From a virus, in IMG/VR virus record IMGVR_UViG_3300032053_011359: DNA of 10,722 bases. One strand, written 5' to 3'. Positions 7,608-10,336 of this stretch are shown piece by piece. Each line of letters starts with the position of its first letter. Within the stretch, counting starts at the first letter, position 1. The position numbers and the translations under genes were made by a program. The notes under the pieces were generated by a model. The model was not told where the DNA came from. It was given only the letters and a program-made list of their open reading frames with translations, and did no database searches.

Positions 7608-7842
7608 GCGGCATCTCCTCAAGGAGTTCGCGGGTTGCCCACTCGAGGGGAGCGCCCATTGCTTCTTTGAAGGGCAGATCTAACTGGTTACGGTACACGC
7701 CGCCATCAGGGAAACGCAGCTCCCAGAGCGTCGAGCCGGTGTTGGTCTTGCCCGACAACCAGTGCTTTCCTTTGTGCTGCCACAGTGCGTCCAGACCTAC
7801 AGCCCACGACGGCCAGTTACTCGGGGTCACGTTTTTCCACAT
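7594..7842 (-). CDS. Hypothetical 82-aa Trp-rich protein
   Basis: ATG at 7842 is preceded by AAAGGAGAA with a 5-nt spacer. The start overlaps the end of the endonuclease VII gene by 16 nt. Seven Trp residues occur in 82 aa. Confidence 0.6.
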   Translation of the reverse strand: MWKNVTPSNWPSWAVGLDALWQHKGKHWLSGKTNTGSTLWELRFPDGGVYRNQLDLPFKEAMGAPLEWATRELLEEMPHAKP

Positions 7843-8249
7843 AGGTTCTCCTTTACCGCGCTGGTTAGATATTCTATCGCTCTTTGTAGCGTCGCCAAAT
7901 CGTCTTTGAAATGACCCAACCCTAAATTACAGTTGGTGCACAACAGGCCACGAAAGTGTTTAGTAGCGTGATCGTGATCAATGCTAAAGCGGGCGTATGC
8001 TCCGCTATCCTTCGTTCCGCAGATGGCACATGCCCCTCTCTGCTTCTCTAGTTGGACCGTGTATTGCGCTTCTGTGACGCCGTATTTACGGAAGCGCAGG
8101 TACGCCGCTTGGCATGGAGCGCAGCGCACTTGCCCTACAGCGCACATTTTTCCGCAGGGCACTTTGTCCCCTGGACCGGGGCACGAACGATCCGCACGTT
8201 TCAAAAGTGTCCTGAGGTAGTCCGTACGCGACGACTGTTTCTTCACCAT
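7827..8249 (-). CDS. Endonuclease VII-family (HNH-like) recombination resolvase with an additional N-terminal Cys cluster
   Basis: The Endonuclease_7 signature is present: Q..G.CAICG at GACAICGTK, followed by FSIDHDHATKHFRGLLCTNCNLGLGHF. The N-terminus has CPGPGDKVPCGKMCAVGQVRCAPC (a putative Zn site). ATG at 8249. Confidence 0.85.
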   Translation of the reverse strand: MVKKQSSRTDYLRTLLKRADRSCPGPGDKVPCGKMCAVGQVRCAPCQAAYLRFRKYGVTEAQYTVQLEKQRGACAICGTKDSGAYARFSIDHDHATKHFRGLLCTNCNLGLGHFKDDLATLQRAIEYLTSAVKENLCGKT

Positions 8250-8282
8250 GGGGAACGCTAATACTCCCCAGGGTAATCAGTG

Positions 8283-9734
8283 TCAATCGTTTTCAGGCTG
8301 ACGCAACATTTGCCGAACCTGCTGGTTTAGCTGCTCTTTACGGGAGCCCATTTCATCGAGGTACTCATCGACGCCGTACCCCGGCTTCCGAAGGCCCGTA
8401 CGCTCCAGGAGTCCTTGCGGAGCCCGCGTGGCGAGGTAGCGCTGGACCAGCACCTTCCGCTCATCCTCAGGCAACGCTGCGTGGCTCTTGTAGCGGATCC
8501 CTCGTCCGATGACCTGCTTCAACTTCTCCTGATTCCAGTGTGGCTCGAGCAGCTGGATGAGACGCGTTCCCTTGAGGTCAAGGCCCTCGCCGCCAGCGCT
8601 CGACAGAAGCAGAGCTTTCAGCTTGTTGTCGTTGTAGTCCTTGACCATCTGGTCGCGGGTCGCCCGGGCCATGCTCCCGGTGAACGACCCGTGCGGGATG
8701 CCAAGTTCCTCGAGCTTCTTCTTGTACGGGTCGATTCCCGACTCAAGGTAGTGCGAGTAGACGATTGCCTTGGCGTTCGGGTTCTTCTCCAACATCTTCT
8801 GGAGCTCCTGAACGGCACGGTCAATCTTCGGCTGGTTCGCTGGTTCGACGCTGGTGTCGAACCCCCGGGTCGTATTCGAGATTTGCCGGACACCGCTCAG
8901 GAATGAGTTGAGCTGCTTGGCCTCCGCTTTCGTGGGCGGGAGGTTCTGCAGAACTTTGTTCCGCACCCAGCTTGGTTGATCCGCGGTCACGTGCGAATAG
9001 AGCTTCATTTGCCCCGAGGTCATCGGTACGCGGACTGTCTCGTCTTCTCGTGTCGGGAAGTTTTCCGTGCTCCCGGGGTGGTAGTCGACGTACTTGTCGA
9101 GTGCGTGCTGAAGGTACCCGGTGCTCCGAGGGTTGAGGCGTGTTTGGTACGACGCCGGGGTACCCCTCAGGCGGTCCCAGAGCCCTCGTTTGTTGGGTAC
9201 GTCCATCAGGAAGCGCTGGGTAAACGCGTCGGGGTCTTCGGGAAGGATTGACCGGCCCGCTACGAAGTTGATCGGCCCCGCGACGTCAGAAGGATGGTTG
9301 TAGAGGAGTGACCCCGTAAGGGCGAGTCGCTTCTCCGCAGGAGACGCCTTGAGCCCCGCTCGAGCCTTCCCTGCGTTTCTGATGCGATGCGCCTCATCAA
9401 CGATCAGGAGTGGTTGGTGCAGCCCCGCCCCTTCGTTTCGTGCGACCCCTTCGATGCTCTGTAGGTGGGACGGCAGCGGCTTGTTCGTGTGAGCTTTGAT
9501 CTCCTTGCTGTAGTTCGACTGTAGGGCTGCAGGAGTGACTACGTCGGACGGAAGACCGAGCGCCTCCTGCACCGCGATGCTGGTCAACGTCTTTCCAGAG
9601 CCGAGTCCGTGCGCAGCTACGAGTCCTGGCTGGTCTTCGTCTTCCATGCGGTCTACGACCCGCTGCTGGTGGGGCTTCAGCTTCGTGGTGAGCTTGGCGA
9701 TCTTGAACCGCTCAAGCATGCGCGTGTTGGTCAT
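8283..9734 (-). CDS. SNF2-family DNA-dependent ATPase/helicase (DEAH box)
   Basis: LKPHQ is followed by Walker A HGLGSGKT. Motif II is LLIVDEAHRIRN. A TGS motif (LALTGSLLYN) is present. The C-terminal helicase domain has AIVYSHYLESG..SAGGEGLDLKG..QVIGRGIRY. ATG at 9734 with GGAGGA 5 nt upstream. The track's GTG at 9749 is 5 codons longer. Confidence 0.9.
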   Translation of the reverse strand: MTNTRMLERFKIAKLTTKLKPHQQRVVDRMEDEDQPGLVAAHGLGSGKTLTSIAVQEALGLPSDVVTPAALQSNYSKEIKAHTNKPLPSHLQSIEGVARNEGAGLHQPLLIVDEAHRIRNAGKARAGLKASPAEKRLALTGSLLYNHPSDVAGPINFVAGRSILPEDPDAFTQRFLMDVPNKRGLWDRLRGTPASYQTRLNPRSTGYLQHALDKYVDYHPGSTENFPTREDETVRVPMTSGQMKLYSHVTADQPSWVRNKVLQNLPPTKAEAKQLNSFLSGVRQISNTTRGFDTSVEPANQPKIDRAVQELQKMLEKNPNAKAIVYSHYLESGIDPYKKKLEELGIPHGSFTGSMARATRDQMVKDYNDNKLKALLLSSAGGEGLDLKGTRLIQLLEPHWNQEKLKQVIGRGIRYKSHAALPEDERKVLVQRYLATRAPQGLLERTGLRKPGYGVDEYLDEMGSRKEQLNQQVRQMLRQPEND

Positions 9735-9990
9735 CGGTTCCTCCGCCACATACGGTGCAGGTGCCCTCTGCGTGCCCCAGGCTCACGTTGGCCTCCGTAC
9801 GCAATACCGGCTCCTTCGTTCCTGCGTCCAGGTACAGGGTAGCATTCCCCTGGATCTCCACGTACGACGTTTCGATGCGTCGCCCGTCAGCGTACTGCAC
9901 CAGGAATGACGTCTTCTTGGGGAGACGTTTGATCGAAATCTTCTTGACCTTCTCGTCTCCTACCGAACGCTTCGTGCGCCTAGGACTCAT
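9712..9990 (-). CDS. Hypothetical 92-aa protein with a basic N-terminus and a beta-rich core
   Basis: ATG at 9990 overlaps the REC gene stop (ATGAGTCCTAGG), and the 3' end overlaps the SNF2 start by 23 nt. It fits the tightly coupled minus-strand array. The overlapping + strand ORFs read as junk. The RBS is weak. Confidence 0.45.
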   Translation of the reverse strand: MSPRRTKRSVGDEKVKKISIKRLPKKTSFLVQYADGRRIETSYVEIQGNATLYLDAGTKEPVLRTEANVSLGHAEGTCTVCGGGTDDQHAHA

Positions 9991-10336
9991 CGCCTACCGC
10001 CTTGTACAGTTCGTGGAGCCCGAACGGTTTACTCAGTAGCTCCGCGGCCACGGTCTTCTTAGCTCGGATTTCCGCGGCATTCAGCACACCGGACATGATG
10101 ACCACCCGGATTCCTTCCAGGTACCCTCCGAGGCGCAGCACCTCGAGCATCTCGAGCCCATCGCTGTTGGGCATGGAGATGTCGGTCAAGAGAACGTCGG
10201 GCTGGTGCAGAATGAATCGTGCCGTGCCGTCCACGCCGTCTTCTGCTTCGAGCACGGTCCACCCGTGCTTCTCCAAAGCCAGGTGTACGAACTTTCTGAT
10301 GGACTCGTCGTCATCGACGACCAGCACGGTTTTCAC
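9980..10336 (-). CDS. Stand-alone CheY-like response-regulator receiver (REC) domain protein
   Basis: VLVVDDDESIRKF (acidic pocket), DVLLTDISMPNSDGLEML (phospho-acceptor Asp), SGV..A and KPF (conserved Lys) are present. No output domain is present in the 118 aa. GTG at 10336 is preceded on the minus strand by CTACACT-TGAGGG, which matches the motif geometry of the leaderless units. Confidence 0.9.
   Translation of the reverse strand: MKTVLVVDDDESIRKFVHLALEKHGWTVLEAEDGVDGTARFILHQPDVLLTDISMPNSDGLEMLEVLRLGGYLEGIRVVIMSGVLNAAEIRAKKTVAAELLSKPFGLHELYKAVGDES

Follow-up and report, generated by a model that had tools for sequence, protein, structure and literature searches.

The window, a stretch of viral DNA of 10,722 nucleotides, carries on its minus strand an array with strong domain support that runs from a receiver domain gene (REC) through a small gene (orf92), an SNF2 ATPase gene (SNF2), an endonuclease VII/HNH nuclease gene (HNH), a second small gene (orf82), and two further small ORFs to a HAD phosphatase gene (HAD). 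An earlier note on this DNA had named the receiver, ATPase, nuclease, and phosphatase on this strand, and Pfam and PHROG matches confirm all four; the HAD gene (6729–7229) falls outside the interval 7827–10336 that the note delimited. Coding-type GC3 values of 0.70–0.77 back REC, orf92, SNF2, orf82, and HAD as genes. The origin of the window in a phage, also proposed before, is borne out by its closest relatives, which are IMG/VR viral contigs of 187–190 kb with conserved synteny; the relatives' loci compared with the window are designated here by L-numbers (L001 and so on). REC indeed stands at the head of the array, with a 75-nt intergenic gap upstream of it and then the divergent gene orf88 (10412–10678, plus strand). 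This neighbor delimits the REC operon upstream; it starts with TTG behind AAGGAGG, matches phrog_19182 (3.5e-7), and is kept in L001, L002, L006, and L014.

REC (9980–10336, minus strand), the operon's first gene, encodes a stand-alone receiver of 118 aa when read from the GTG at 10336. The second GTG, at 10327, is more probably the true start and gives 115 aa: the 115-aa product is called in two independent assemblies (L009 and L010), and this GTG has an RBS, GAGGGG, 8 nt upstream. In agreement with the previous description of a receiver that lacks an output domain, Pfam Response_reg (PF00072) is the sole domain found (E 7e-20; 71.7 bits versus a cut-off of 30.2; profile positions 1–110 of 111). 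Residues D8, D9, D52, K103, and P104 are invariant in an alignment of 24 family members and 3 outgroups, and S82 is at least 90% conserved among these 27 sequences, with a threonine in one outgroup CheY. Every residue needed for aspartyl phosphorylation is thus kept, and REC is a canonical receiver that looks catalytically competent.

The REC family comprises ~49 protein clusters at 56–99% identity, after which identity falls to 41% or less. Next in similarity, at 34–46% identity, come genuine CheY proteins encoded in cheA/W/R/B operons, and REC is no nearer to cellular CheY than to the receivers of KdpE or NtrC. The aromatic switch position, equivalent to Y106 of CheY, is occupied by a leucine, L100. 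Two named identities were considered and rejected. A chemotaxis CheY is contradicted by the lack of che operon context, the missing aromatic switch residue, and scores below the NCBIfam CheY equivalog cut-offs (NF007901, 46.2 bits versus 189; NF041367, 44.4 bits versus 200). The best NCBIfam match is to the equivalog of CpdR, a ClpXP-priming single-domain regulator, and again the required score is not reached (62.9 bits versus 180). REC shares with CheY, CpdR, DivK, and Spo0F a (βα)5 receiver fold, the DD/D/S-T/K-P residues, the absence of an output domain, and a length of about 115–120 aa; as these single-domain regulators bind proteins in a phosphorylation-dependent manner, the same may be expected of REC by analogy. 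Unlike them, REC is phage-encoded without che, cell-cycle, or phosphorelay context, lies below every NCBIfam equivalog threshold, has leucine at the switch position, and is translationally coupled to an SNF2 ATPase, a pairing absent from the literature searched.

The second gene, orf92 (9712–9990, minus strand), begins with an ATG that overlaps the REC stop, as had been noted, by 11 nt, and it overlaps SNF2 by 23 nt. Its small product is highly conserved; the core is all-β, and the C-terminus bears the motif CxxCGG-x-T-DDQHAHA, which is invariant and a putative zinc knuckle. SNF2 (8283–9734, minus strand) encodes a minimal SNF2-family ATPase of 483 aa. The reading frame is open as far upstream as the GTG at 9749, and the start is likely the ATG at 9734, which lies behind GGAGG and yields the 23-nt overlap. 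The protein matches Helicase_C (PF00271; 62.8 bits, 4e-17), SNF2-rel_dom (PF00176; 43 bits versus a cut-off of 24.9, 4e-11), ResIII, and phrog_62, and its GSGKT, DEAH, and QxxGRxxR motifs are intact and invariant over 67 homologs. Sequence and the AF2 model (pLDDT 90.6) together indicate an intact minimal dsDNA-translocase core. The best Foldseek matches to this model are ISW1/ISWI, CSB, DDM1, Mot1, and Chd1 (E 1e-22 to 1e-18; TM about 0.65–0.70), generic SNF2 cores among which RNA polymerase (RNAP)-associated and other roles are not told apart.

Across the window, L006, L009, L011, and L014, REC and orf92 overlap by up to 11 nt or are separated by up to 3 nt, and the overlap between orf92 and SNF2 is constant at 23 nt. 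In L003 (GC 50%), orf92 has been lost and the REC stop meets the SNF2 start. Every REC family member with recoverable context (10 loci) lies at the REC-orf92-SNF2 locus; among 45 REC-like IMG/VR loci, SNF2 is nearby in three, all from the clade of the window. The conserved core is therefore a three-gene operon of overlapping genes, REC-orf92-SNF2, in a clade of uncultured ~187–190-kb phages. A more distant locus, L078 (SNF2 at 65% identity), has orf92 and SNF2 and no REC, so the orf92-SNF2 pairing appears to be older than the arrival of REC. Neither REC nor orf92 is present in L004, L005, L017, L018, or L021–L029, where SNF2 identity is 63% or below. Neighboring, overlapping phage genes may have nothing in common but the time at which they are expressed.

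REC could also be directed at the host, as the earlier note proposed with its phosphate sink. Expressed early, it would act as a decoy or phosphate sink that drains a host kinase (e.g., CheA) or binds the target of a single-domain regulator, with motility, stress, or envelope signaling rewired as a result; its adjacency to SNF2 would then mean co-expression only. Bacteria are known to use CheY-type proteins as phosphate sinks, and the canonical, stand-alone character of REC is consistent with such a role, as are its nearest outside relatives, the CheY proteins of che operons, and CpdR as the best NCBIfam match. We found no histidine kinase or Hpt domain (HisKA, HATPase_c, or Hpt) within ~10 kb on either side in L007, L011, L012, and L014, and any phosphodonor is thus presumably the host's. 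For a pure decoy, however, nothing would explain why translational coupling to SNF2 persists down to 57% REC identity, or why REC abuts SNF2 again after orf92 is lost. The failure of REC to pass any named-family threshold (CheY, 46 bits versus 189; CpdR, 63 versus 180), the leucine at the Y106 position, and a similarity to CheY no higher than that to the KdpE and NtrC receivers also argue against a host target, and we consider this reading rather unlikely. If it holds, REC would be a small viral protein that inhibits two-component signaling or serves as a decoy in it.

Upstream of REC lies a 12-nt motif, CTTATACCCAAA (10377–10388, minus strand), that is invariant across relatives and is a candidate promoter or operator, about 41–50 nt from the REC start, depending on which GTG is used. 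Each clade locus holds exactly two copies of its degenerate form, YTKATAYMCAAA, both on one strand, the first preceding REC and the second preceding orf82, which is the first gene of a second transcription unit in the relatives. The conserved small protein encoded by orf82 (7594–7842, minus strand; 16 nt shared with the HNH gene) is recovered by tblastn at 46–91% identity in L001, L002, L006, L011, and L014, and profile searches of Pfam and PHROG gave no family match for it. Two small overlapping ORFs follow (7226–7607, minus strand), of about 66 aa (7407–7607) and about 69 aa (7226–7435), the latter basic and Arg/Lys-rich; both are conserved by tblastn and are gene calls in L009, L011, and L014. 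The HAD gene (6729–7229, minus strand) encodes a phosphatase of the PNKP 3′-phosphatase type (PF25109 HAD_PNKP, 1.7e-7, 31.9 bits versus a cut-off of 27.6; PF03767, 1.2e-7; phrog_415, 3.9e-21) with motif I, DLDQT (DxDxT), read at residues 8–12. In its HAD_PNKP and phrog_415 matches and its DLDQT motif, the protein resembles the phosphatase domain of T4 Pnkp (HAD, DxDxT); unlike T4 Pnkp, it consists of the phosphatase domain alone, with no kinase domain.

The second copy of the motif is destroyed in the window by a mobile insertion of ~420 nt (7856–8275, minus strand) that carries the free-standing EndoVII/HNH gene (CDS 7827–8249). This gene, a strong match to Endonuclease_7 (PF02945; 4e-24, 84.6 bits versus a cut-off of 23.6), sits at the promoter-like motif in the SNF2-orf82 intergenic region. 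It is absent from the site in L001, whose SNF2 is 99% identical, and in L002, L003, L006, and L011–L014, and it is present only in L009 and L010, both about 99–100% identical to the window over shared genes. Its GC3 is 0.56, versus 0.76 in the neighbors, and its nearest isolate homologs are scattered over unrelated phages. The HNH gene is a recent, strain-specific mobile insertion outside the conserved module: it is not a component because even L001 lacks it, as do all the other relatives apart from L009 and L010, and its composition is foreign. It resembles the T4 endonuclease VII family and free-standing HNH homing endonucleases in PF02945 membership, intergenic presence/absence polymorphism, and deviant composition, and may be of the homing type, but it occupies a promoter-like motif rather than a coding target. 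Any functional model of the locus should drop the nuclease. The single helicase/nuclease/phosphatase module proposed in the earlier note thus falls apart, with HNH as a presence/absence insertion and HAD as part of the second transcription unit behind its own conserved promoter-like motif.

The SNF2 family is far wider than REC, with >1300 homologs detected. Other lineages join different N-terminal modules to the same core, so the position behaves as a regulatory slot; no REC-SNF2 fusion protein is found among the 120 listed of the >1300 homologs. Swapped N-terminal modules recall the polyvalent proteins of phages and could be taken, together with weak PADLOC matches of the SNF2 core to the DpdE, DrmD, ZorD, and BrxH models, to favor a further suggestion of the earlier note, that of an uncharacterized defense or anti-defense cassette in which SNF2, HNH, and a phosphatase work under a phosphorylation-responsive regulator. 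What the window SNF2 has in common with DISARM DrmD, Zorya ZorD, Dpd DpdE, and BREX BrxH is the SNF2/helicase-C core, at 38 bits or less (best match DpdE, 37.9 bits, over the shared helicase core only). PADLOC gave weak, unrelated matches for REC and HNH, and no DISARM, Zorya, Dpd, or BREX partners were detected among the other eight proteins scanned. The nuclease is strain-specific and not a component, and the locus lies in a core region that is conserved among phage genomes of ~190 kb. The note had itself anticipated that conserved synteny in a phage genome beside DNA polymerase or primase genes, with REC orthologs only as conventional phage early genes, would refute its reading, and this is largely what is seen: synteny is conserved in large phage genomes, the neighbors being dCMP deaminase and DNA ligase, and REC orthologs are found in these phages only. 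The defense-system reading is largely refuted, and we regard it as extremely improbable.

Relatives of SNF2 point to phage transcription. The better of two isolate matches, gp217 of Salmonella phage Arash (39.6% identity over 96% of the length), is a probable ortholog, and its gene follows that of RNAP β′. Virion mass spectrometry found gp217 together with RNAP in Arash particles (PMC10585845), and a survey of jumbo phages independently proposed an RNAP-linked, RapA-like SNF2 (Iyer et al. 2021, PMC7824862). Both gp217, as a RapA-like helicase, and the window SNF2 are minimal cores of about 480 aa, and Arash-type genomes and the window clade both encode a split β-β′ RNAP with an InPase insert. 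SNF2 lies beside RNAP genes in L019, L024, and L028, being adjacent and divergent in L024 and between two RNAP genes in L028 (47–49% identity to the window SNF2 in these two metagenomic lineages), and RNAP lies ~9 kb from SNF2 in L018. In the window clade itself, this adjacency is absent. The multisubunit RNAP of the clade, at locus L020 on the same contig as L001, consists of a 1603-aa protein (Rpb2_3, InPase, Rpb2_6, Rpb1_1, and Rpb1_2) and a 599-aa protein (Rpb1_5), with no SNF2 gene in the cluster and ~90 kb between RNAP and SNF2 on the 188.6-kb contig. The window SNF2 thus differs from gp217 in standing behind REC and orf92 and in its distance from RNAP; a role in transcription in this clade is hinted at by extrapolation from relatives at 40–50% identity.

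The best PDB sequence match to SNF2 is vaccinia NPH-I (D11), with an E-value of 1.6e-8 that applies to the C-terminal lobe only. NPH-I, which is virion-packaged and RNAP-associated, and E. coli RapA belong to the SNF2-type ATPases and work on RNA polymerase that is transcribing or has stalled. Both are very distant from the window SNF2, and RapA does not appear among the NCBIfam matches. Neither is known to be under receiver-domain control.

The earlier note had assigned the locus to replication and recombination, and a version of this reading survives removal of HNH: SNF2 would be a UvsW-like branch-migration or fork-remodeling motor, gated by REC, that works with the HAD 3′-phosphatase and a nearby DNA ligase. 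Every clade member does have a HAD_PNKP gene behind SNF2 (in L003 as the very next gene), DNA ligase is ~5 kb downstream in L014, and dCMP deaminase is upstream. In L017, a LigD_N + ligase protein precedes SNF2, and in L021 and L022, SNF2 borders Thy1/RusA/RecA-like genes. SNF2 helicases may also replace UvsW in some jumbo phages (PMC7824862). Set against this, the closest isolate relative of SNF2 is encoded and packaged with RNAP, the HAD gene has its own promoter-like motif, and in L021 and L022, SNF2 ends an operon of giant Pfam-less proteins rather than lying inside the recombination genes. SNF2 cores, moreover, translocate on dsDNA and are not helicases that separate strands. The SNF2 neighborhoods and the Arash virion proteomics carry at least as much weight for transcription as for replication or recombination, and we consider a recombination/repair role quite unlikely as the function of the locus.

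We tentatively propose that REC is a phospho-switch partner of orf92 and SNF2, a reading that we hold to be possible and somewhat short of an even chance. Like other single-domain response regulators, REC would act through protein-protein contact. A host histidine kinase or acetyl phosphate would phosphorylate D52, and phosphorylated REC would bind or release orf92, SNF2, or both, with orf92 serving as an adaptor or zinc-knuckle subunit of the motor. The switched motor may then remodel or recycle the phage transcription complex on DNA, such that phage gene expression would follow the signaling or energy state of the host. REC would be a later regulatory addition to the older orf92-SNF2 pair. 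The complete scheme, in which phosphorylated REC switches an SNF2 motor serving the RNAP that the phage itself encodes, the transcription program reads host state directly, and orf92 is a new zinc-knuckle adaptor, is unlikely to be correct in all its parts.

Eavesdropping by phages on host signals is known, as with quorum-sensing receptors and arbitrium. In the literature searched, hardly any work deals with receiver domains of phages, and no report connects one with phage transcription or with an SNF2 motor. If the complete scheme holds, a transcription machine encoded by a virus would receive a two-component-style input that is itself viral. Gating of SNF2 by REC would mean that a virus couples its own transcription or DNA-remodeling machinery to host phosphorylation, would assign a function to the widespread, uncharacterized RNAP-linked SNF2 of large phages, and would offer a simple, biochemically tractable three-protein system.

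The receiver fold might alternatively be retained for structural reasons. Pseudo-receivers exist, and REC could be a non-signaling adaptor, for example a chaperone for the assembly or packaging of SNF2; packaging of the SNF2 relative in Arash virions makes targeting factors plausible. Pseudo-receivers usually lose the phosphorylation-site residues, however, and we judge this role very improbable for REC, in which the five phosphorylation-site residues and the K-P pair are kept across the family (56–99% identity; S82 at least 90% conserved).

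A continuous gene array occupies the minus strand of the window, beginning at 10336 and extending to ~3238. It opens with the stand-alone receiver-domain gene REC (9980–10336; PF00072, E = 7e-20), followed by orf92 (9712–9990), which has no family match, a SNF2 ATPase (ORF 8283–9749; Helicase_C, 4e-17; SNF2-rel_dom, 4e-11; phrog_62, 1e-38), an EndoVII/HNH nuclease (7827–8249; PF02945, 4e-24), orf82 (7594–7842) and two small ORFs within 7226–7607, these last three conserved and without a family match, and a HAD/PNKP-type phosphatase (PF25109; phrog_415, 4e-21). The earlier note had the domains and overlaps right, whereas the HAD gene (6729–7229) falls outside the interval that it gave for them. 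As read from the DNA, the REC stop and the orf92 ATG overlap by 11 nt; the best candidate start for SNF2 is the ATG at 9734, which has GGAGG upstream and yields a 23-nt overlap with orf92. REC most likely starts at its second GTG (10327), giving a 115-aa product that is the gene call in two independent assemblies. When REC and SNF2 were queried as exact proteins in their longest-ORF forms, nothing was retrieved, since the real starts are internal.

The assignment of REC-orf92-SNF2 as a conserved phage operon is well supported. A search of IMG/VR with the SNF2 protein identified six viral contigs of 131–195 kb, and the SNF2 protein of IMGVR_UViG_3300036766_000644 (188,569 bp; loci L001 and L007) is 99% identical to that of the window. 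Searches with REC, orf92 and SNF2 returned many metagenomic contigs, the longest of 181–190 kb. The gene order in relatives, with orf88 divergent from REC-orf92-SNF2 and then orf82-orf66-orf69-HAD, is kept down to 57% REC identity (L011–L014), and in syntenic relatives HAD is followed by Gly/Ala-rich proteins and an MVP-like gene. The region is a conserved part of a large phage genome, and a cellular island is ruled out. By megablast, the full window matched no phage in INPHARED, leaving no isolate phage close at the DNA level. In terms of host, NCBI cluster names offer a single 'Gemmatimonadaceae' MAG label and nothing more, and the GTDB matches lie on large contigs, probably phage genomes, that are binned into unrelated taxa. 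One clade member, L003 (IMGVR_UViG_3300049844_000277), has a GC content of ~50% versus ~60% in the others and a SNF2 identity of 76%; its locus is reduced to REC-SNF2-HAD, with orf92, orf82, orf66 and orf69 all missing.

The earlier note combined helicase, nuclease and phosphatase into one module, a grouping that the comparative data take apart. In the alignment of the SNF2-orf82 spacer, ~420 nt (roughly 7856–8275) that include the HNH nuclease are present only in the window, in place of ~35 nt of the spacer found in L001, L002 and L006; tblastn for the HNH gene was negative in all of L001–L008. The insertion otherwise occurs in L009 and L010 only, both ~99–100% identical to the window across shared genes, and a 39-mer taken from the HNH gene had no exact match in IMG/VR. 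The GC3 of the HNH gene is 0.56 (0.70–0.77 in REC, orf92, SNF2, orf82 and HAD), and its homologs are scattered among unrelated phages; given this deviant GC3 and scatter, the nuclease is a free-standing EndoVII-family element, a mobile insertion and not a module component. Its status as a hitch-hiker at the locus is well supported.

Comparative alignment further revealed a 12-nt motif, YTKATAYMCAAA, in exactly two copies per clade locus, both on the coding strand, one roughly 40–50 nt upstream of the REC start (window 10377–10388, minus strand) and the other ~41 nt ahead of the start of orf82 (L001 copies, 9362–9373 and 11473–11484). The window retains only the first copy intact, the HNH insertion having split the second. 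A sigma-70 consensus scan showed no convincing promoter ahead of REC or orf82, and YTKATAYMCAAA is a candidate shared promoter or operator, which would make REC-orf92-SNF2 one unit and orf82 through HAD the next. It is well supported that the phosphatase, placed behind the second copy, is a neighbour and not a module member. This placement counts against the proposal that SNF2 acts in recombination or repair alongside the HAD 3′-phosphatase and a ligase, a role that we consider improbable. Among the genes near the locus in relatives are those for a dCMP deaminase and an Api92-like DUF1281_C protein, and L014 additionally has an ATP-dependent DNA ligase gene there.

The REC homolog search yielded 49 clusters at 56–99% identity (112–240 bits), with a sharp fall to ≤41% (66 bits) beyond. 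All family members are stand-alone; the N-terminal extensions of longer ones such as P0003 and P0020 are unaligned and contain no second Pfam domain, and most likely reflect upstream start calls. Since D8, D9, D52, K103 and P104 do not vary across the family and S82 hardly does, REC should be phosphorylatable. The protein scores below every named-family threshold in NCBIfam (CpdR, 63 bits versus 180; CheY, 46 versus 189) and has Leu at the position of Y106 in CheY, and its next-closest proteins, genuine CheY genes in che operons, share only 34–46% identity. The possibility that REC is a divergent jumbo-phage cREC (PMC7824862) was rejected, as the match to classical PF00072 is strong and cREC is missing from the Pfam matches. 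A divergent cREC gene (PF20274) does lie one gene downstream of SNF2 in L017 (11963–12301, minus strand), a locus with 61% SNF2 identity and no classical REC, in which nSTAND3-AAA, RtcB and HNH genes are close by.

No REC ortholog was found in INPHARED phages, and this SNF2 is a neighbour at only three of 45 REC-like loci in IMG/VR, all three belonging to this clade. Among the neighbours within ~10 kb of REC in L007, L011, L012 and L014 there is no kinase or Hpt gene, and the 120 SNF2 homologs listed, of >1300, include no REC-SNF2 fusion protein. The main rival to a role for REC at SNF2 is that REC, simply co-expressed with SNF2, acts on the host as a decoy or phosphate sink, which we regard as unlikely. 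We tentatively prefer, at somewhat less than even confidence, that REC is a phospho-switch: it would bind orf92 and/or SNF2 and thereby tune a motor that may service the phage transcription complex.

Homologs of orf92 form 31 clusters at 66–99% identity, and none more remote was retrieved. The motif CxxCGG-x-T-DDQHAHA at the C-terminus does not vary, and a putative Cys2His2 metal site in this tail is plausible. In the 23-nt overlap with SNF2 (9712–9734, minus strand), all substitutions across six lineages are synonymous in orf92 and non-synonymous in SNF2, a pattern that shows orf92 to be the more strongly constrained frame and points to selection on the orf92 tail. In L078 (SNF2 identity, 65%), an uncalled orf92 homolog (59% identity) overlaps SNF2 and REC is missing, and in L003 REC abuts SNF2 without orf92; judged from these two loci, orf92-SNF2 is probably the older pair, REC a single later addition and SNF2 the constant partner. 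The short proteins encoded ahead of SNF2 in L018, L021 and L022 were considered as distant orf92 analogues and rejected because they bear no resemblance to it.

SNF2 itself is an intact minimal core from a family of >1300 homologs, many on 100–200-kb contigs. Its AF2 model (pLDDT 90.6) matches the ATPase cores of ISWI, CSB, Mot1 and Chd1, and Foldseek singled out no RNAP-associated subfamily. Several observations tie the family to phage multisubunit RNAP. In the PDB, the best match by sequence is NPH-I of vaccinia, an ATPase associated with the virion RNAP. The best isolate relative, gp217 of Salmonella phage Arash (39.6% identity), is encoded directly after the RNAP β′ gene and has been detected in virions along with RNAP subunits by mass spectrometry (PMC10585845). 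SNF2 lies between the β-β′N and β′C genes in L028, is adjacent to and divergent from RNAP genes in L024, and is ~9 kb from a 2164-aa RNAP gene in L018. The clade of the window encodes the same RNAP: on the contig of L001 it lies ~90 kb from SNF2 (L020, 5459–13743), as a 1603-aa β-β′N fusion (Rpb2_3/InPase/Rpb2_6/Rpb1_1/Rpb1_2, InPase being an inserted inorganic-pyrophosphatase-like domain) and a separate 599-aa β′C subunit (Rpb1_5); this cluster has no SNF2 gene. Defence SNF2 proteins gave weak core-level matches only (PADLOC, NCBIfam); that the locus lies outside known defence systems is well supported.

Phage receiver domains have been catalogued before (e.g., phrog_731), and RNAP-linked SNF2 genes have been noted earlier, with a jumbo-phage survey proposing an RNAP-correlated, RapA-like SNF2 (PMC7824862). 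What is new is the clade-specific, translationally coupled REC-orf92-SNF2 arrangement, of which we found no description in the literature open to search, and the orf92 family. A demonstrated link from REC to SNF2 or RNAP, if true, would raise the interest of the locus greatly.

The same SNF2 core carries differing N-terminal modules in other lineages. In some close orthologs (82–85% identity; P0123, P0124 and P0128, e.g., L006 9275–11422), ~10 N-terminal residues are followed by an insert of ~230 aa, with a HE(M/V)GH zincin-like motif of HExxH type and no Pfam match. The C-terminal ~95-aa domain of orf353 (residues 256–352; window 3238–4299, minus strand) forms the N-terminal module of orthologs P0145, P0146, P0151, P0154 and P0156, and likewise begins a 1269-aa LigD_N+DNA-ligase protein encoded immediately upstream of SNF2 in L017; the shared domain is a Rosetta-stone-type link between orf353 and SNF2. 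Together with orf156 and orf423, orf353 belongs to a Gly/Ala-rich set (3238–6043, minus strand) with low-complexity, TM-like stretches, in which an 'AYxxG...A..FGL'-like motif recurs near the N-terminus. Conservation is strong at the N-terminus of orf353 (MPFKSEAQRRLFHAK...), and proteins resembling the set lie between the two RNAP genes in L020 (11051–11940). A DUF7417/phrog_3908 match (8e-17) falls at the 3′ end of a plus-strand ORF (2667–3086) that overlaps minus-strand orf199 (2399–2998); the real gene is probably only ~62 aa, as called in L009. The window also encodes a 702-aa major vault protein (MVP) homolog (57–2165, plus strand; MVP_shoulder, 9e-20; Vault_3, 4e-8), of which relatives have 895-aa versions; the one report of phage MVP homologs so far is a 2023 preprint describing two gut phages. 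The window and L001 versions are only 58% identical, despite 99% SNF2 identity and an otherwise near-identical contig, which suggests allele replacement at this gene.
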